From the NCBI GenBank assembly GCA_965221795.1, contig OZ244914.1, positions 3,130,030 to 3,194,029 on the forward strand: a stretch of 64,000 bases of DNA, in the 5' to 3' direction. The stretch is from Candidatus Poriferihabitaceae bacterium (GTDB lineage Bacteria; Pseudomonadota; Gammaproteobacteria; Arenicellales; Poriferihabitantaceae). The notes beneath the pieces are model-generated. The model ran no database searches. It was not told the origin of the DNA and was given only the letters and a program-made list of their open reading frames with translations. Positions 1,248 through 32,214 of the stretch are shown here, piece after piece; position 1 is the first letter of the stretch; every line of letters starts with the position of its first letter. The position numbers were made by a program, and so were the translations under genes.

Positions 1248-1324
1248 TGGCGCCCCAGAGAGGATTTGAACCTCCGACCTGCCGCTTAGGAGGCGGCTGC
1301 TCTATCCGACTGAGCTACCGGGGC
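1248..1324 (-). tRNA. tRNA-Arg (anticodon CCT)
   Basis: The reverse complement gives gccccggtagctcagtcggatagagcagccgcctCCTaagcggcaggtcggaggttcaaatcctctctggggcgcca. It has a cloverleaf with a 7-bp acceptor stem, a GTTCAAATC T-loop, the anticodon loop ctCCTaa and an encoded CCA. Confidence 0.93.
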
Positions 1325-4467: not shown

Positions 4468-5439
4468 ATGCAAGCGGAATTCTCAGTAGCACCGATGATG
4501 GAAGTTACGGACCGTCATTGTCGTGCATTGTGGCGCCTTTTTTCCCGGCGCACTCGTCTGTATACGCAGATGGTAGTCACTGGCTCCATTGTTCATGGAG
4601 ATCGGGATCACTTCCTCGGTTTTGACGAAAGCGAGCATCCTGTTGCCATTCAACTCGGGGGAGCCGACCCGGAGGAATTGGCATACTGTGCGCAATTGGC
4701 GGAAGACCGGGGATATGATGAAGTGAACCTGAATGTTGGCTGCCCCAGCAATCGTGTGCGGAGAGGATTGTTCGGGGCTTGTCTGATGGCAAAGCCGGCA
4801 TTGGTGGCGAGTTGCGTCGAAACGATGAAAGCAGCCGTAACCATCCCCGTTACTGTCAAGACTCGGACCGGGATTGATAACCGGGATCGCTACGAAGACT
4901 TATCCGAATTTGTCCGAGTCAATGCGGAGTCGGGCTGCGAGCACTTCATCATTCATGCCCGGAAAGCCTGGCTTACGGGGCTAAACCCCAAAGAGAACCG
5001 AACGATCCCGCCACTCCAATATGATACGGTGTATCGATTGAAATCAGACTATCCGCATCTGCGGTTTACCCTGAATGGAGGAGTCAGGGACTTGGACCAG
5101 GCCGAGAGACATCTCGCCCGGGTCGATGGGGTGATGATGGGGCGACAGGTTTCCGTTGATCCTTGGCTATTGACTGAGGTGGATGAGAGACTGTTCGGGG
5201 AGAACTGGAGCGAACGGCCCATCTCCCGTTTTGAGATTCTGAATCGATATTTGCCCTATGTCGAACGGCAATTGTCCCAAGGAGTGTATCTGCGACATAT
5301 GAGTCGACATCTGTTGCCACTGTTTCATGGGCAGCCCGGGGCAAAATCATGGCGTCGCCATCTGTCCGAGTACGGCCCCCGAAAAGGTGCCGGCCTGGAA
5401 GTCATCGAGCAGGCGGTACAATATGTCAAAGGAGGATAA
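4468..5439 (+). CDS. dusA: tRNA-dihydrouridine(20/20a) synthase
   Basis: N-terminal VAPMMEVTDRHCR and NLNVGCPS motifs. Length of 323 aa is typical of DusA. Confidence 0.88.
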   Translation: MQAEFSVAPMMEVTDRHCRALWRLFSRRTRLYTQMVVTGSIVHGDRDHFLGFDESEHPVAIQLGGADPEELAYCAQLAEDRGYDEVNLNVGCPSNRVRRGLFGACLMAKPALVASCVETMKAAVTIPVTVKTRTGIDNRDRYEDLSEFVRVNAESGCEHFIIHARKAWLTGLNPKENRTIPPLQYDTVYRLKSDYPHLRFTLNGGVRDLDQAERHLARVDGVMMGRQVSVDPWLLTEVDERLFGENWSERPISRFEILNRYLPYVERQLSQGVYLRHMSRHLLPLFHGQPGAKSWRRHLSEYGPRKGAGLEVIEQAVQYVKGG

Positions 5440-5548
5440 GAATGGCACTGAGTCGGGGCATGGTTCCCATAACCGAACGAAAATCATGGGGTGGGTGGAT
5501 GGTCATATTTGGCAAATGGCCTCCCTTCCTTGCGCCTGATGGGATGTA

Positions 5549-7400: not shown

Positions 7401-8615
7401 ATGAAAAAGCTGAACAAGCTACTGAGCACAGTAAGCCTGCTGGTTTCCATTTCATTCATAACTTCAACCGCTTTTGCCGGCACGAAGATTGGTGCGATCT
7501 TCGACCTCACTGGTGGGCTCAACATTTACGGTATTCAGCAGAATCAAGCTTTGGAGCTTGCGGTTGAGAAAATCAACGCTGATGGCGGATTGCTCGGAGA
7601 GTCGGTCGAAGTCGTCACCTATGACGCGCAATCTGAACTGAGTAAATATACACAGTTTGCAAACACTGCGATTTTGCGCGACAAGATAGACGCGTTGTTT
7701 GCTGGCCTAACCAGTTCCTCGCGAGAAGCTATTCGACCGATTATCCGGAAGGCTAAGATACCCTATTTCTACTCTTCGCTCTATGAGGGTGGGGCATGTG
7801 ACAAATATACGTTTGTTACCGGTTCCTCGGCGTCCCAGCAACTCTCCGTTTTGATCGAATGGGCAATCAAAAAATATGGCCCGAAGATCTATATTATGGC
7901 ACCAGACTATAATTTTGGAACGATCTCCGGTCACTGGGTTCATGAATATGCTCAACAAAATGGCGGTAAAGTTGTGGGTGAGGATTTTTTGGCCCTGACA
8001 GTTACCGACTACGCACCGACGATCCAGAAAATACAAGCATCGAAGCCTGACTTCGTTGTAGCGCTTCCAGTTGGAGCCAATCAAACCGGCTTTCTTGAGC
8101 AGTTTGCAGCCGCTGGCCTGAAAGACTCGATTGGCGTTGTTTCCACCAACTACGGCTCGGGTAATCAACAGGTTGTTGTATCGCCAGCCGCTGGTCAAGG
8201 CCTTATTGCTAATCAAGGCTATTTTCAGCATGTTGAAGGGGAAGCGAATGTTGCCTTCGTGCAAGCATGGCAAAAAAAGTACGGTAGTGACATTCCGATT
8301 GTTTCGGTTGCTGTTGATGTTTGGAATGCTGTCAATCTGTGGGCACTTGCTGTTAAACGGGCTGGCACTGCCGAGACCGATGCTGTCATTGCGGCGTTAG
8401 AAAGTGGCCTGAGCTTCGACGCTCCGAATGGTCACGTCAAGCTGGCACCTGCCTCGCACCATCTCGAACAAAACATCTATATCGTCGAAGGCGATAATAA
8501 TCATGGCTTCAACACTATTCAAACGTTTGAAGCTGTACCGGCGAGTTACGAGAATCAGGTATGCGACCTGATTGCCAACCCTGATCTCGCAGAGCACTTT
8601 ACTCCCGCAAACTAG
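7401..8615 (+). CDS. ABC transporter periplasmic substrate-binding protein, Leu/Ile/Val/urea/amide (type I PBP, FmdD/UrtA/AmiC-like) family
   Basis: Signal peptide MKKLNKLLSTVSLLVSISFITSTAFA, then GTKIGAIFDLTGGLNIYG, typical of LivK/UrtA-type binding proteins. RBS agggga sits 10 nt upstream. Confidence 0.8.
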   Translation: MKKLNKLLSTVSLLVSISFITSTAFAGTKIGAIFDLTGGLNIYGIQQNQALELAVEKINADGGLLGESVEVVTYDAQSELSKYTQFANTAILRDKIDALFAGLTSSSREAIRPIIRKAKIPYFYSSLYEGGACDKYTFVTGSSASQQLSVLIEWAIKKYGPKIYIMAPDYNFGTISGHWVHEYAQQNGGKVVGEDFLALTVTDYAPTIQKIQASKPDFVVALPVGANQTGFLEQFAAAGLKDSIGVVSTNYGSGNQQVVVSPAAGQGLIANQGYFQHVEGEANVAFVQAWQKKYGSDIPIVSVAVDVWNAVNLWALAVKRAGTAETDAVIAALESGLSFDAPNGHVKLAPASHHLEQNIYIVEGDNNHGFNTIQTFEAVPASYENQVCDLIANPDLAEHFTPAN

Positions 8616-15487: not shown

Positions 15488-16177
15488 TCATTTTTGATTT
15501 CGTCCATAACGTTCGCGACGTTGCTGCTTTTGGGTAATTCGATCTTTCTCTGCTAAGGAATGTTCAACACTTTCCAGCCACTTCACACACCAATTCATCA
15601 TTTCACTGTCAGAAATGCGCGAAACAACTTGACCGAATTCAAGGCAACATTGTTCAACAGGATCCAGAACACTCAAGGAACTGTCATTTGAGTTGTCAAA
15701 TATTTCCAACTGATCAAACAGATCAACGGTTCGACGCAAATTCGACAATGAATATTTATAGCGTTCAGGAATAATTTTTGGGTCAACATAGTGTCCTGTA
15801 TTCTCCTGAACGCGACGCACCACCCTTTCAATATTAATCTCGGGTGACTTGGTCCCTATATAGATGCCCTCGATTCGATATTCCGCCTGTTTTGCCTGGG
15901 CAACGCGCTCGCGACCTGGACGACCGGAATAGGTACTTTCGATTCCGTAGCTCACCCTGTCAAGCATTGCCTTGGCAACTTCGTTGTTAACAATTTCAGC
16001 AGTTCTTTTCCGAGCATCAATGCTGTTCCAATCACCGATTCCGCCTGCCACCGAATCCTGATCAAAGTAACGCTCAGGCAATATGTCGTAATTTGCCCTT
16101 TTCCATGCACTTTTTCCAGCGCCATTGCAACCCATCACGATAGTGAATACGGGGCGATTGTCAAGCTGATCAGCCAT
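15488..16177 (-). CDS. zeta-toxin-like P-loop kinase / COG4185-type ATPase
   Basis: Walker A VMGCNGAGKSAWKR, then FDQDS, ESTYSG and RVVRRVQENTGHYVDPKIIPERYKYSLSNL. This layout is typical of zeta/PezT-related kinases. Start chosen at MADQLD. Confidence 0.65.
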   Translation of the reverse strand: MADQLDNRPVFTIVMGCNGAGKSAWKRANYDILPERYFDQDSVAGGIGDWNSIDARKRTAEIVNNEVAKAMLDRVSYGIESTYSGRPGRERVAQAKQAEYRIEGIYIGTKSPEINIERVVRRVQENTGHYVDPKIIPERYKYSLSNLRRTVDLFDQLEIFDNSNDSSLSVLDPVEQCCLEFGQVVSRISDSEMMNWCVKWLESVEHSLAEKDRITQKQQRRERYGRNQK

Positions 16178-16372
16178 GAATCTTTGTAGTATCGACCAGG
16201 AATGCCTGCTTTGGATTATCACGGACCGTCATTTTGAAGAATTCAGGTCGGTATCTTTGATAGCGTCTTATTTTTCTCAATGCCAAACTTGAAAAAATAC
16301 AAGGCCACCTTGCATGCAAATTCATATTTCTGCTTCCGGGTTGGCGTTATATAACTCCCCTTTTTTTCTCCA

Positions 16373-18388
16373 TCACTGCAACCGTTTCTTCTTGGCCGGA
16401 TATTGGCTAACTGCCTGCGCAAGGTTTTTGTCAAACTCCCATGGATAGCTAATCACTACCGCATTGCGCAGGGATATAAAGTCGCGGGCATCAAGCAGGA
16501 CACCAAACCATGTCTTAGCGCAGTTTTGGTATTTTCGAACCAGACAAGTGTTGGAGAGATAGGTCTGCGCTTTTTCCGGTGGCATCCGGTTGACCTGAAG
16601 GGTCAGACCCGCATCGAATGCTGACATGGGAAAGCTCATGCCGTACATGTCTTGTGCATTCGGTTGACTCTGCCAGCCATCAATAATAGCGTCGATTTCC
16701 TCAATCATTTCCCCGCCGAATTTGAGCAACATTAATCCGGTTTCGATGGCAGCCGGACAGGGTTGCGCTTCCACCTGTGCAACGATTTTTCCGACAACAG
16801 TTTGAGGAAGATGTGTAAGGATGCCCTCCGGCGTGGCGGCTCCCGGCATTCCCGCACGGCGCGTCATCATCGCGATATTTAGCTCGTGTGTGTCTTGATC
16901 AAGGATGGCCAGCATATCCACATCATTGTCAATCCACAGATTTTCGCGTAAGTGTACGTTGAGTATGGCGAGTTCGTCTGTTGCGCAAATCTTTTCGTGG
17001 TAGTTCACACGACGGTTCACATAGCTCAGAAACCGTAACGGTGTTGCCAGCATCTCTGCGACTACGTCGATCAGGAACACATCCGTGACCAGCGGGGGTT
17101 GGATGCACTGCGTCCTTTCATAATGCAAAAACTGATATGCCTGGTAAGTCAGCGCAGGGTAAGAATCCGAAACAACACAGACAACATATACCTCCTTGCA
17201 CTCAATCCTGAGGGGGATCCGTTCACCACCCTCCAGTGCCAAAACACAATCCTCCGCGAACAAACTGCTTGCGCACTTGAAGCCTTGATCATTTGCGTTT
17301 TGAACCGCTTTCGAAAAATCTGCTTTTGCGTGCCGAAGATCACCTTTTCTAGCCTTGACTGTAAGGCGTTTGGACTTGGCCTGCACAATGATCGCCCGGT
17401 CGCCGTACAGAACCAGCACATCCACTTCGCCTACGATCTGCTTTCCAGATAATAGGTTAACGTTGGAAAAAACACTGTCTCGGCCGAACACGTCCGACAA
17501 TCGCCTCTTGCAGAACCTTTCCGCAAAACTTCCTCGGTGAACGCTATGCGCATCTCGGTAGTCTGGATCGTCGGTCATCCAATATGAAGGGGTCGTATAG
17601 ATCGCCTCCGCTAGCGTGTAGTTCTGAAACAAAAGATAGCGGCTGGCACCCATCATGATTAGTGGTGTGGCCGTCGCGGCGTTGAAATCACTGATGGTGG
17701 TGAATCCTGCATTTTTGCCGCGTAGTGCGAAGGCTTCAAGAACCGAAACGACAGTTTCGACGCTGAGCCCACTTTCGCCTACAACCTCACTGACACTGGT
17801 GACGAAGTGGGGCAGTAGATTTCGATCACTACGGGCGATGGTTGGGGGATTGGACAGTATCGAATCCAGTCGTCGAGCTCTCACGGCAACGATAGCCTTG
17901 GCCACCAGAATCGCGTCTTCAATAACAAACCCGCGTTTGCTTCTCAACCATTCATTATCCGCTGAATATCGCTCTACGGCGAAATCAAAGTATTGGGACT
18001 CATAGGCGGCCTCGGGGCCGTAAATAATCGGTTCGCGCAGAGCCTCCCCCAAGTTGGGTGGAACTGCGGAAAGGGACGGTCTGTGAGGTGCGGAAACAGC
18101 ATCATGCAACTCCTCCATGAGCGTTAATGTCTTTTTCACATACTTTCGAACCAACGCGGGCTTCGGCAAGTCGAGGTCCAAATCACCTTGGACCGCCAGT
18201 CCGACCAAGATGTCGACCTCCCTTCTCGTTAGCACGGCAGGCCCCTTGACCAGAAGTTCAGGAGTCAGTTTGTCATCGGCCAAGCCAACCACATTCCCCT
18301 CTACCCAACAGGCGGCGATCGCGTGAGCATAGCCCGGCGACTGGCAGAGACTTCGCAAGTTATTTAGTACTGCCGATTCTTTTCGCAT
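16373..18388 (-). CDS. 671-aa hypothetical protein with a central PD-(D/E)xK (Mrr/NERD-like) nuclease motif
   Basis: GEVDVLVLYGDRAIIVQAKSKRLT (about nt 17365-17435) fits the D...(D/E/Q)xK pattern as seen in Mrr_cat/NERD domains. AGGA RBS lies 8 nt before the ATG at 18388. No other domain was recognised by eye. Confidence 0.5.
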   Translation of the reverse strand: MRKESAVLNNLRSLCQSPGYAHAIAACWVEGNVVGLADDKLTPELLVKGPAVLTRREVDILVGLAVQGDLDLDLPKPALVRKYVKKTLTLMEELHDAVSAPHRPSLSAVPPNLGEALREPIIYGPEAAYESQYFDFAVERYSADNEWLRSKRGFVIEDAILVAKAIVAVRARRLDSILSNPPTIARSDRNLLPHFVTSVSEVVGESGLSVETVVSVLEAFALRGKNAGFTTISDFNAATATPLIMMGASRYLLFQNYTLAEAIYTTPSYWMTDDPDYRDAHSVHRGSFAERFCKRRLSDVFGRDSVFSNVNLLSGKQIVGEVDVLVLYGDRAIIVQAKSKRLTVKARKGDLRHAKADFSKAVQNANDQGFKCASSLFAEDCVLALEGGERIPLRIECKEVYVVCVVSDSYPALTYQAYQFLHYERTQCIQPPLVTDVFLIDVVAEMLATPLRFLSYVNRRVNYHEKICATDELAILNVHLRENLWIDNDVDMLAILDQDTHELNIAMMTRRAGMPGAATPEGILTHLPQTVVGKIVAQVEAQPCPAAIETGLMLLKFGGEMIEEIDAIIDGWQSQPNAQDMYGMSFPMSAFDAGLTLQVNRMPPEKAQTYLSNTCLVRKYQNCAKTWFGVLLDARDFISLRNAVVISYPWEFDKNLAQAVSQYPAKKKRLQ

Positions 18389-18635
18389 GATGTTTTCCTG
18401 CGATTTGCTGCAGTGCCACAGAATATGGGGGGTTGCTGAGAATCGTGTAAAAATACACACTACCGGCTTAGCCGAAAAGAAGACAATATGTAATAAAGCG
18501 TTCAAAATGCCTTAGCGTAGGAGACCCTACACTCGTCTGGAGTCTATCCGCCTTACAATAATTGGACTAGGGCAATCATGCAAAGCACTGCGGAAAGAAT
18601 ACCAAACACGACTGGAAGAAAAGTTTCAACGTTTG

Positions 18636-19010
18636 TCATCTCCCAATAACCATTCCATTGTTTTCTGGTTTTAAAATCTCCCACTCCCGTCTGAAAAAAG
18701 GAAAGGCTATCTCGTTTTCAAGTTCATCCAATGCCTTGAATTTGCCAGAGTTGAGTTGACGATAAGACCTGATAACAACCCACCACGAAGCAGAGATCAC
18801 GAATCCAAGTATTCCCACAGACAGGAAAACGAAGTTTAGAGGAGATTCTGCGACGCCAGATTCGATAAAGACGCCCGCGGCCAGGCCCAGCCCGGAAAGA
18901 ATGCCAATGTATAGCCGGTTTGCCGCTTCGCGCCGTTGGCTGACCCTGTCAGCAAGTTCCGCATGGAGTTTGTAGATTTCCAGCAATTCGGTTTTTGAAT
19001 GTTCTGTCAT
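18636..19010 (-). CDS. small two-TM membrane protein (SLATT-like candidate effector)
   Basis: 124 aa. N-terminal amphipathic helix (ELLEIYKLHAELADRVSQRREAANR), two hydrophobic spans (LYIGILSGLGLAAGVFI, FVFLSVGILGFVISASWWVVI), then YRQLNSGKFKALDELE. Its start codon overlaps the stop of the upstream TIR-like frame (ATGA). Confidence 0.6.
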   Translation of the reverse strand: MTEHSKTELLEIYKLHAELADRVSQRREAANRLYIGILSGLGLAAGVFIESGVAESPLNFVFLSVGILGFVISASWWVVIRSYRQLNSGKFKALDELENEIAFPFFRREWEILKPENNGMVIGR

Positions 19011-19420
19011 TTTGATAACTCCCGAATGGCAGTCACCACTGAGTTAACCTGCCATCTCACAATACAATCGGCGGAATTTTTGACCTTTTTCGAAGCTCTT
19101 TCGCTTCCCCAGTATTCAATAGCAATGATGGGTTTGGGAAATCGAAAACCGTTTTTTGCCAAATCAATTTCGATGTTGATCCATTTGCTTTATGAAACAT
19201 ACATCCCCGCCAGTATAAGAACAACTCCGCAGGGTGTCATCTTACCCTTGATCGCTTGTGCAAGTTCTCTGTCTGAATTGGCATGATGGATAGGATCATA
19301 TTTAGGAACCGAATGATTCTTGTAGCTAAAGTAAGTTCTGTCATCTAGCAGTTCAACAAGACCATCGTAGTGGTCTGAGTAACTCCACGAATGACTAATA
19401 AATAGATTGTGTGTTCTCAT
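19007..19420 (-). pseudogene. TIR-like (DUF1863/MTH538-type) protein interrupted by one in-frame TAA
   Basis: MRTHNLFISHSWSYSDHYDGLVELL ... GVVLILAGMYVS, then TAA at 19192-19190. The same frame continues SKWINIEIDLAKNGFRFPKPIIAIEYWGSERASKKVKNSADCIVRWQVNSVVTAIRELSK. Both halves match the TIR-like family layout, and the stop sits where a Tyr (YSKWI) is expected. Confidence 0.65.
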
Positions 19421-19988
19421 AACAATGATTCCTACTATCACCGATATGTCAGATATATCCCATCAAGGGTACATTATGTTGCGCAACATAAGATGCAACA
19501 TGGGATTTACGGATTGTATCCTACTCCCCCACGACGTATGAAACACTACTGGCAAGGGGTTGCCTCCGTTTTATGAAATGAGATGTAATAACGGTTGGAC
19601 CGCCCTCACCCCACAACCGGGCAAGGTTTGGTATCAGCCACCGCAACCAGATCTGAGAAGACAATGCGCTAAGGCTTGGGACGCGAATTCGGCATCCCGA
19701 TCCCGCTTCTGCCACTACGTGACACTTACCGTAGTAGAAAGCACTCGGCAATGCCGCGTTACCGCAGCGTGCAGAATACCATGCGCAGACGATGCGCCAT
19801 AGTGGTGCGGTGTTTGGGGCTACGATATGGCAAGCACAGCCTATCAAGGCAGCCCCGACGAGATACGCAGACTTCATAACTGCGATGGCATTCTACGACT
19901 AAACAGGTGCTGAGGCAATTTCGCTAGTGTGGGTCCTCACATAGCGAAAAAAGAGGATTACGATAGGAAAGTTGACAAATTGACAGAA

Positions 19989-20845
19989 CTAGGGCGTGTT
20001 AACGCTACGCAGTGTATCAATGACCAGCGCGAAGACGACGAATCCGAGATACATGACATCAAGCTTGTCGAAGCGCGAGAAGACTCGGCGAAAGCCCTTG
20101 AGTCGCCGCAACAGGCGCTCGACCTCGTGGCGCCGCCGGTACCGTTTCCGGTCGTATTCCCAGGGGGTGATGCGACGGCTTTTCGGCGGGACCACGGGCG
20201 TGAAGCCGAGGTCGGCAACCCGCCGGCGGGTTTCATCGTCTTCACAGGCCCGATCCATGACCAGTGCCGGTCGTGCGACGGCTTCTTCAGCCGCTGCCGG
20301 AGCTCCCGCCCCTCCGGGGCATCGTGGGCGTTGCCGGGAGAGCGCGCGAAGGCAACGGCCGTTCGGGCATCCGCGGCCACCAGATGAAGCTGGGTGTTCC
20401 ACCCGCCCCGGGACTTTCCGATGCCCTGGGCGCCGTTTTTTGTAGCACCCCCGTGCCCTCGGGATGCCCCTTGATGCGGGTGCTGTCCAGGCCCATGGCC
20501 TCCCCCCGGATCCGGATCATTCGCTGCCGCTGCCGATGCGCGAACACGCGGTCCAGAACCCCGTTCTTCGACCACCGGTTCCTGCGCGTGTCGATGGTGG
20601 GCCCGTTGCCGAAGGGCTCCGGCAGGCCGCGCCCCTTGCCGCCGTGCTCGGCCACGTAGAGAATGGCGTTGAGTACCGGCAGGTTCGAGAGGCTGACCTT
20701 GCCCCGCGGCCTCGGCCGCAGCGGGGCCATGCGCTCGTACGGTGCCCGGGTAAGTTCCATTGCCGGTTCCTCCGTACTGTTCCGGTTGACAATCACGGGC
20801 ACCGAGTATACCATGTCTGGAAGAGATTGTGTTAACACGCCCTAG
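19989..20845 (-). mobile_element. IS5-family, IS427-group insertion sequence (about 857 bp), GC-rich
   Basis: Terminal inverted repeats ctagGGCGTGTTAAC (19989-20003) and GTTAACACGCCctag (20831-20845). OrfA runs from ATG 20760 (LPVLNAILYVAEHGG...). An A6 run lies at 20436-20441 where the frame changes to ...KNGAQGIGKSRGGWNTQLH. The C-terminal part reads DRACEDDETRR...RRHEVERLLRRLKGFRRVFSRFDKLDVMYLGF. A second frame change near 20270-20330 is needed. Confidence 0.8.
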
Positions 20846-20894
20846 TCCACATATGTATGATGCTTCTAGATTCCATCCTTTGCGAGAAAGTACA

Positions 20895-21512
20895 ATGATG
20901 AAGCTTACCCTCCCTTTCATTAGATTCGCCGCGCTCGCGCTTGCCACGTCACTGGCGAGTACAGCCCAATCTGAATCGATCAGTTGTACCAATTTCAAGA
21001 GATGCGGAGGATGTAATATATCCGTACCGAGTTCTGTGTTAAGTGATAAAAGTGCGGAAATCAGTTTATCTTGGGTATTGCTGGGGAATTTGTTGAATTC
21101 TGGTTATATTGCAAGCAACATATGGCATAACTGGAGCTACTTCATCTCTGTTCCCATCGTCTTGCAGGTGACAAAAACTCATGAAGGAGTTTCCGAACTG
21201 GTCTTCATGGAGAAGATTAGAGATATCACCTTTGACCGCGGACTAGGTTCCCATACCAGCAAAATCAACGATTTGGAACCGAATACTAACTACACTGCAG
21301 TCGCTTATACCGGCATTAAAGAAAAAAGCAGCTCGGATCCGTTTGCCAGAATATGCTTTAGAACAAAACCGAATGCCGACTGCCCAGAACTGGAAGGCAA
21401 AAGATATAAGGTGGAATCGTCAGACGGCAGTAGCTATTTTATAGTCGGTGGTCAAAAAGAACGGGAGGATTGTCCAGGAACAGGGCTGAGCGGGTATTTC
21501 ACAGATAATTGA
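20895..21512 (+). CDS. secreted hypothetical protein with an FN3-like C-terminal segment
   Basis: Signal peptide MMKLTLPFIRFAALALATSLASTAQS. LEPNTNYTAVAYTG...FRTKP resembles a fibronectin-III strand pattern. Confidence 0.5.
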   Translation: MMKLTLPFIRFAALALATSLASTAQSESISCTNFKRCGGCNISVPSSVLSDKSAEISLSWVLLGNLLNSGYIASNIWHNWSYFISVPIVLQVTKTHEGVSELVFMEKIRDITFDRGLGSHTSKINDLEPNTNYTAVAYTGIKEKSSSDPFARICFRTKPNADCPELEGKRYKVESSDGSSYFIVGGQKEREDCPGTGLSGYFTDN

Positions 21513-22202
21513 TTCACTCCTGACTTCGACGGGGGTTTTTTTTGAAAAAGTATGTCTTTTCAGTCGCTTGACTTTTCCGCTAGTGGATGTTGCGAAACAT
21601 CTCTTGACATCCTTGCCACTGTCTGCCACTTTTCACCCCGCCCCTGTCATGGGGTACCAACCTATCAAGAACACTACCATCCAGGCCTAAACGGCCCGAA
21701 GCTGCATATTCGGACTGGAGGGCACTGAACCGAGTAATACACGGAAAGCGTAAACGTACTGCTTACGCTTATATTTTCTGAAAAGGGGTGATAAGAAAAA
21801 TATAAGGCATTTCAAGGGGCGTTTTCCCCGGGAGGTTGTGAGGTATTCCCCGTACGCCAAACGCGGACTCATGGGCCCTGCAGGAGACCGTTTTCTGGTC
21901 ACCAGCATGAAAAATCGCGCCGGGGATCTCCTGCATTTTGCCGATCTCGCCAGCTGATTCCGGTATTTAGGACCACTGAAATCCAGCATTTACAGGAATC
22001 ACTGTTCCCCAACTCAATTACTCAGAACCTCCTTAGGTCAGAAGCGAGTGATTCTCAGAAAAATACCATACACAAAACCGATGGATGACAAGCTGCAATA
22101 ATGCCTGCTTTGGCCTTGGGGAACATCCAGGTCTGCAAGTGATAGGGGTGAACGGCATCCTTGATTGCGATCATGCTACTTCGCACGGTAGAATCTTTCT
22201 TA

Positions 22203-32054: not shown

Positions 32055-32127
32055 GGCCAGGTAGCTCAGTCGGTAGAGCAGGGGACTGAAAATCCCCGTG
32101 TCGGCAGTTCGATTCTGTCCCTGGCCA
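32055..32127 (+). tRNA. tRNA-Phe (anticodon GAA), CCA not fully encoded
   Basis: ggccaggtagctcagtcggtagagcaggggactGAAaatccccgtgtcggcagttcgattctgtccctggcca has a canonical cloverleaf. It is followed by cct. Confidence 0.93.
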
Positions 32128-32214
32128 CCTCCAACCTCCCCTTGGATAGTAGAAAATCGGGTTATGTTCAGGCCAGGTTGGCCGCATTTGCCTTGCATCG
32201 TGCAACAGTCCAGT

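Follow-up and report, generated by a model that had tools for sequence, protein, structure and literature searches.

The question raised by a 64,000-nucleotide stretch of the genome of a Candidatus Poriferihabitaceae bacterium (contig OZ244914.1 of assembly GCA_965221795.1, positions 3,130,030 to 3,194,029; the window below is this whole stretch) is whether two overlapping genes on its minus strand, one for a TIR-like protein and one for a small membrane protein, constitute a minimal antiphage system of a new kind. An initial annotation made from the sequence alone suggested that they do; it likened the pair to TIR-SLATT modules and placed it outside the named defence systems. We conclude that the window pair is neither a new kind of system nor a SLATT pairing, and that what appeared to be a new minimal system of a TIR protein and a protein with two transmembrane (TM) helices is a doubly inactivated copy of a configuration that an earlier survey lists as a predicted Thoeris variant. 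The locus is likely what remains of a decaying Thoeris-like module of two genes, in which the gene of a ThsB-type TIR protein is followed by that of a ~150-aa effector with three TM helices from the Pfam family PF24838.

The first gene of the pair is a thsB-like TIR pseudogene (19007..19420, minus strand; ATG at 19420, TGA at 19007-19009), which comprises 137 codons if read through and whose translation holds FISHSWSYSDHY, SKWINIEIDLAK and IVRWQVNSVVTAIRE. The read-through product matches Pfam PF08937 (ThsB_TIR) with 45.1 bits at a cutoff of 21.2 (E=1.4e-11) and nine ThsB-type models of PADLOC, the best of them PDLC00418 (E=2.3e-11). These matches, which are valid for the read-through translation only, identify a ThsB-type TIR protein as found in Thoeris, and they support both the TIR-like open reading frame (ORF) of the initial annotation and its proposal of an operon of a defence or signalling type made of a TIR and a small membrane protein. 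As encoded, the gene is interrupted by an in-frame TAA at codon 77 (19190..19192, minus strand), where DNA alignment with the homologous loci L001-L003 shows TAT, the codon for the tyrosine of a Y-x-S-Y-S-K-W motif. The stop falls seven codons ahead of Glu84 (GAA codon at 19169..19171, minus strand, in W-I-N-I-E-I), which lies downstream of the stop, is hence untranslated, and from established knowledge presumably occupies the position of the conserved catalytic glutamate of TIR NADases.

The two genes share an ATGA stop/start overlap (19007..19010, minus strand), just as had been annotated, and homologous loci show the same junction, their TIR match reaching the effector start or stopping 3 nt short of it. 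The effector gene as encoded (18636..19010, minus strand) specifies 124 aa, namely a cytoplasmic N-terminal helix, TM1, TM2 and a cytoplasmic segment, and is cut off before TM3. Its product matches PF24838 ('Octameric membrane protein family', 8xMP) with 98.4 bits (cutoff 30, E=3.9e-28), the match spanning only positions 1-103 of the 136 positions of the model. A search of ~5.8 billion proteins returned 1111 homologs, every listed one of which belongs to PF24838; nearly all are 145-160 aa long, with ~150 aa being typical, and they align to only ~92% of the 124-aa query and then run on with ...RYWxLTxVETxLPxxF and a third hydrophobic helix. The remnant of this C-terminus in the window, TRKQWNGYWEMTNVETFLPVVFGILSAVLCMIALVQLL, includes TM3 and is found in the -1 frame (18553..18669, minus strand), which is open to the normal stop. 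Three-frame translation and alignment with the intact genes of L001-L003 locate the loss of a single nucleotide in the A-run of GAGATTTTAAAA-CC, at a T_TTA_AAA site (18669..18675, minus strand) whose A-run at 18669-18672 is one base short, A4 being present where the frame implies A5. When one base is restored, a 151-aa effector is obtained that aligns without gaps to homologs, shows all residues that are invariant across 42 aligned sequences and matches PF24838 over its full length (123.5 bits, model positions 1-135 of 136).

The initial description of the effector as a two-TM protein with a conserved tail was right about the N-terminal helix, the two hydrophobic spans and the motif RSYRQLNSGKF, which is the most conserved one of the family. 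The described protein is, however, incomplete, and RSYRQLNSGKF is not a tail, because the third TM helix belongs downstream of it, in another frame; it is the juxtamembrane cytoplasmic segment after TM2. Likewise, the stop in the TIR gene had been noticed while the frameshift in the effector gene had been missed. Repair of the one stop codon to Tyr, which had been proposed as a way to a usable construct, would not give a working pair because the effector is also frameshifted.

Instead of the intact TIR with a catalytic Glu and the intact effector of a Thoeris system, the window holds a TIR fragment that ends before Glu84 and an effector without TM3, and because of this the module should be inactive; judged from its sequence, it is most likely non-functional. 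A contig of the same species that was assembled independently (L004, ENA ERZ25070844) matches the window in its flanks with 99.45% identity over 7.9 kb and 98.26% over 7.7 kb, and the synonymous divergence (dS) of the flanking genes between the two is 0-0.04. The L004 effector carries the same 1-nt loss, seen as the same gap in the alignment, and has lost the invariant Pro of TM3, and the L004 TIR gene has suffered a separate ~230-bp deletion and a 1-nt insertion; yet another 1-nt deletion is present in the TIR gene of L001. Intact pairs (137-200 aa plus 152 aa), with 86% DNA identity to the window, are present in L002, L003 and L006. L003 (pair at 7591-8459) and L006 (pair at 4591-5450, OZ243980.1) come from related Arenicellales metagenome-assembled genomes (MAGs) and have pairs of 137 aa and 152 aa. 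The window and L004 differ 4-10 times more in the pair than in the flanks, the effector having a dS of 0.17 and a ratio of non-synonymous to synonymous rates (omega) of 0.35. When window positions 18498-19576 are aligned with L004:7685-8508, the TIR/8xMP remnant is 84-91% identical and the flanks are 98.3-99.5% identical. We suspect that the A-run lesion is common to both alleles despite their divergence through recombination or allele exchange in a variable island combined with ordinary decay, a simpler reading than rescue by frameshifting.

The pairing itself is widely kept. Of 80 species-representative genome loci with close effector relatives (L005-L084), 57 have a TIR homolog whose end falls on the effector start or 3 nt ahead of it, which bears out the conservation of the gene neighbourhood that the initial annotation had proposed as a check. 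By a criterion of coverage and stop codons, both genes are intact in 36 of the 80 loci, the adjacent TIR gene is disrupted in 15, and no adjacent TIR is detectable in 22, in some of which remnants of a TIR can still be seen or another TIR protein is present. The effector looks intact in 70 of the 80 loci, far more often than its TIR partner, and the usual route of decay seems to be one in which the sensor is lost and the pore gene is kept. The family as a whole is large: in a complete HMMER search of 1.84 billion representatives, 2941 clusters (50% identity) reached E<=1e-3, and PF24838 was matched by all 107 effector clusters sampled. In a distant 8xMP subclade, represented by 14 sequences with a YKLYVEMADR motif and by loci from JGI metagenomes, the upstream ORFs match ThsB_TIR in 33 of 56 cases and TIR_2 in 21 of 56, with at least three TIR sequence types, so the association of 8xMP with TIR proteins holds across distant subclades. 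The overlapping-codon pairing of TIR and 8xMP is conserved across many phyla, and the 8xMP protein is a dedicated effector encoded in the same operon, as is the case in Thoeris. In some loci of the distant subclade (L114, L115, L141 and others), the upstream gene codes for a protein of at least 650-780 aa in which a TIR domain is joined to NB-ARC and/or WD40 repeats and which replaces the bare ThsB.

The closest 8xMP relatives (47-88% amino acid identity) come almost exclusively from MAGs of at least 12 phyla, including Ca. Poribacteria, Ca. Poriferihabitaceae, Arenicellales, Paracoccaceae, Latescibacterota and Bryobacterales, and further Vicinamibacterales, Rhodothermales, Synechococcus 'SB' bins, Dehalococcoidia and Nitrospirales. 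It looks as if this clade has spread horizontally within one habitat, probably sponges; the CAR, COS and SB bins we take to be of sponge origin. No effector relative was found in the viral contigs that were searched with a phage origin in mind.

The configuration to which the window pair belongs is present in a recent survey. Yirmiya et al. (December 2025, bioRxiv 10.64898/2025.12.03.692087) scanned defence islands for TIR operons, selecting TIR clusters for enrichment beside known defence genes, and proposed 29 putative Thoeris types; they validated types V-XI. The validated type VII consists of ThsB and the SLATT effector ThsH and uses canonical cyclic ADP-ribose (cADPR) as its signal, and ~100 TIRs of their Table S1 have a partner labelled '3TM', a putative Thoeris effector that is also present in their Fig. 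1C. The statement that the pair lies outside the named systems is thus outdated, since a TIR with a SLATT protein is type VII Thoeris and a TIR with a '3TM' protein is catalogued as putative; no paper of 2025-26 validating a TIR+3TM system was found in a literature search. The window pair has the makeup of the '3TM' class, a TIR of a defence-enriched ThsB cluster (e.g., 2734565194) beside a small three-TM protein, and the repaired window TIR is 70% identical to the '3TM' TIR ga0242696_10887324 of Table S1 and 58-67% identical to four other '3TM' TIRs compared. The TIR of L088 (JGI scaffold Ga0131710_100245) matches the '3TM' entry ga0242689_13051122 with 100% identity over 128 aa, and because it directly adjoins, on the upstream side, a PF24838 gene, the 8xMP family makes up, by this sequence identity, at least a portion of the '3TM' class. 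The anonymous label is in this way tied to a defined Pfam family with ~2,900 clusters at 50% identity. One and the same TIR domain sequence appears in Table S1 both as '3TM' (ga0334889_100102710) and as 'DUF2270 - Type V' (2566029509), which means either that one TIR has two effectors or that the labels overlap.

The putative 'TIR + 3TM' systems resemble the window pair in the kind of TIR and in an operon of two genes, of which the other encodes a small three-TM protein; they differ in that they are a prediction only, under a label that may cover several effector families, whereas both genes of the window copy are disrupted. In type VII, as in the window, a ThsB-type TIR gene is followed by an adjacent or overlapping gene of a membrane-spanning effector, the Pseudohongiella ThsB belongs to the same TIR cluster as the window TIR (42% identity), and ThsH and 8xMP are alike in the basic residues that flank the TM hairpin, but ThsH is a protein of ~290 aa with SLATT_1, SLATT_3 and DUF4231 matches while the window family has ~150 aa and belongs to PF24838. 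The closest experimentally characterised TIR is the type IV ThsB of E. coli 328 (58% identity over 132 aa), whose partner is a soluble caspase-like protease responding to N7-cADPR, unlike the membrane protein of the window; identity to type VIII ThsBs is 34%. The type V effector ThsF (DUF2270/PF10028, signal 3'cADPR) is likewise a small three-TM protein that is thought to form a ring assembly gated by the TIR product, and the ring predicted for it by AlphaFold 3 (AF3) has basic pockets between protomers (bioRxiv 10.64898/2025.12.03.692087). ThsF and 8xMP are separate families, set apart by the Pfam listing, and PF10028 is not among the Pfam matches listed for the 42 and the 107 8xMP members at lenient E-values (top 25 families per scan). 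Finally, MisC of type II Metis, in line with the name 8xMP, has three TM helices and an AF3-predicted octameric ring gated by a nucleotide in a cytoplasmic pocket; its ligand is m6dAMP, it has no annotated domain according to the authors, and its partner is a HAD phosphatase (MisB) where the window has a TIR (bioRxiv 10.1101/2025.11.05.686725).

Whether the effector is a SLATT protein was judged on PF18181, PF18184 and related Pfam models together with NF033634 of NCBIfam. The window protein has no Pfam SLATT match, and SLATT_5 appears in two of the 107 diverse 8xMP members (E=0.027). The match of the window effector to NCBIfam SLATT_1 is below threshold (E=0.034, 14 bits, cutoff 41), as are the matches of this model in 16 of the 42 8xMP members. 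The PADLOC model RTasSLATT gives weak matches in 6 of the 42 members (best E=0.0011) and is the only PADLOC model matched there; the window effector itself has no PADLOC match, and PADLOC holds no model for 8xMP. For a direct comparison with ThsH, the 294-aa effector of Providencia stuartii L090 (SLATT_1 + SLATT_3 + DUF4231), reached via homologs of the Pseudohongiella ThsB, served as the reference, and its profile was built from a 27-sequence alignment. Against this profile, 8xMP profiles with an effective number of sequences (Neff) of 2.1 and, with the 107 diverse members, of 5.2 gave no significant hhalign match (probability 0.4%, E 0.15-0.17). The weak alignment obtained lays RR-TM1-TM2-YRQLNSGKF of 8xMP over KRRA-TM-TM-HNELNSAY of ThsH. 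SLATT membership is rejected on the grounds that only sub-threshold matches were obtained with Pfam, NCBIfam, PADLOC and hhalign: the effector belongs to a separate Pfam family, PF24838, and is not detectably SLATT. The two families may be very remotely related, because the weak ThsH alignment is accompanied by recurrent sub-threshold matches of two independent SLATT models, but membership is not supported by these comparisons. The reference locus itself (L090:1523-4313, JAGSRX010000030.1) holds two tandem ThsB + SLATT pairs of a type VII-like kind, with a phage integrase and BrxA to one side and PIN_12 and TnsA-like genes to the other.

How could intact relatives of the pair work? The AlphaFold 2 (AF2) monomer of the restored effector, predicted on the 42-sequence alignment with a mean local confidence score (pLDDT) of 78.5, has helices at 3-50, 57-101, 105-114, 120-125 and 127-151, which is consistent with a cytoplasmic N-helix continuous with TM1, a TM2 that extends into a cytoplasmic helix, and TM3. 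R26, R27, N31, Y83 and K90 are nearly invariant, and the invariance of R81 and R32 is limited to the close clade of 42 sequences. A PDB sequence search with the single effector and with the profile gave no match among solved structures, Foldseek with the AF2 monomer returned only generic helical bundles (all E > 2), and a literature search on '8xMP' and PF24838 found no relevant paper. By analogy with Thoeris types II, V and VII as Yirmiya et al. describe them, the TIR protein of intact relatives would sense phage infection and convert NAD+ to an ADP-ribose-derived signal. This signal may then bind conserved helices on the cytoplasmic side of the effector that are rich in Arg and Lys, one ahead of TM1 (YKLHAELADRVSQRR..ANR) and one behind TM2 (RSYRQLNSGKF...FFRREWE), upon which a ring of effectors in the inner membrane would breach or depolarise the membrane and abort the infection. 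Our best guess is a base-cyclised signal of the cADPR type, because the closest characterised TIRs make N7-cADPR (type IV) and canonical cADPR (type VII). It is possible, if rather unlikely, that the intact relatives represent a genuine unnamed Thoeris type in which 8xMP is a ring-forming nucleotide-gated pore that evolved independently of SLATT and responds to N7-cADPR or to an undescribed TIR product; the clade closest to the window appears to have spread horizontally through sponge-type symbionts of at least 12 phyla. N7-cADPR has so far been known to activate a protease only. The intact homologs, such as that of the Arenicellales MAG, are the right material for work on the signal and the pore, and the family remains a reasonable experimental target.

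Several points weigh against reading the locus as a decayed Thoeris-like module. The '3TM' class is not among the tested systems of Table S2 of Yirmiya et al., who call the labels of their Table S1 noisy, and the link from '3TM' to 8xMP rests on a single identical TIR, that of L088. About a quarter of the close 8xMP genes have no adjacent TIR. The octameric state is implied by the name of the Pfam family only. The omega of 0.35 between the window and L004 means that the effector remnant has accumulated fewer non-synonymous changes than neutral decay gives. Finally, Yirmiya et al. give an explicit caveat that the TIR of an unverified putative type might itself be the effector, acting by NAD+ depletion, and not the signal maker (bioRxiv 10.64898/2025.12.03.692087).

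This caveat leads to the alternative that survives best, in which the roles are reversed: the membrane protein or another factor would be the sensor or regulator, and the TIR would deplete NAD+ as the TIRs of CBASS, Pycsar and pAgo systems do, with no diffusible signal involved. Some 8xMP genes do adjoin large TIR-NB-ARC-WD40 proteins that resemble self-contained sensors, but the window TIR is a bare ThsB-type protein of 137 aa, 58% identical to a ThsB that was shown to make a signalling nucleotide. Moreover, TIRs of the same cluster pair interchangeably with caspase, SLATT, CMP-hydrolase and DUF2270 effectors, which is the hallmark of a signal producer, and the most conserved residues of the effector are cytoplasmic Arg and Lys, which would suit a nucleotide pocket. 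We consider the reversal of roles improbable and retain the decayed Thoeris-like module as the preferred reading.

A second alternative, for which we see very little chance, is that the module still functions, either because the lesions are assembly errors or because a -1 ribosomal slip at T_TTA_AAA restores the full-length effector in register. The heptamer does have the canonical X_XXY_YYZ form, the TM3 segment of the window reads open in the -1 frame as far as the normal stop, with the family-invariant residues preserved, and the same lesion is found in two alleles that differ by 9%. The heptamer is, however, present in intact homologs too, as it encodes the conserved I-L-K, and no stable structure follows it (z = +0.88, with 166 of 200 shuffled sequences folding as well or better, and negligible covariation), while other truncated members of the family break at many different positions. 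A programmed -1 frameshift was set aside for these two reasons, the missing downstream structure and the scatter of truncations in the family. As to assembly errors, a substitution to TAA is not typical of long reads. Function is further contradicted by the independent destruction of the TIR gene in both strains, through the TAA in the window and the 230-bp deletion in L004, and by the disappearance of the invariant TM3 proline from L004.

An equally remote notion is that the pair is not a defence module at all but one of a toxin-antitoxin-like or membrane-stress kind that has no more than domains in common with Thoeris; the family is known from sequence only and has no PADLOC model, the neighbours in the window are not known defence genes and many 8xMP genes lack a TIR, but the survey selected these very TIR clusters for enrichment beside known defence genes, types IV, VII and VIII have been validated with sibling TIRs from the same cluster, homologous loci adjoin BrnT toxin, PDDEXK/AAA and phospholipase-like genes, and frequent decay with a patchy distribution fits an accessory defence gene.

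The surroundings of the decayed module in the window had been described as an AT-rich patch in a typical defence island. The first part of this description is weak, as the G+C content is 0.46-0.51 across ~7-20 kb of the window and the low values are not confined to the pair. Of the neighbours named in the second part, a zeta-toxin-like P-loop kinase gene (15488..16222, minus strand) exceeds the Pfam cutoff (PF06414, 26.5 bits, cutoff 22.3), and pieces of an IS5-family transposase gene (19958..20840, minus strand; PF13340 DUF4096, E=7.3e-12) are present in a GC-rich (63%) insertion. The supposed nuclease-like orphan, a 710-aa ORF (16373..18505, minus strand), matches PF08378 (NERD) with 17.1 bits, below the cutoff of 22.1, and has no PADLOC match, and none of the three neighbours of the pair that were scanned against PADLOC gave a match; the defence-island setting is rejected on these grounds. 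The zeta-like gene is kept beside the locus in L004. Two blocks of the window, 16466-18497 with the 710-aa ORF and 19577-21711 with the IS5-family pieces and a 227-aa ORF, are missing from L004, and because of this the spot that the pair occupies between the zeta-like kinase gene and an S8 peptidase gene is strain-variable. The 227-aa ORF (20829-21512) inside the second block has no family match. Elsewhere in the 64-kb window, a tRNA-Arg(CCT) (1248-1324, minus strand) and a tRNA-Phe(GAA) (32055-32129, plus strand) are the only Rfam or ARAGORN matches, and the first kilobase is unusually GC-rich (70%).

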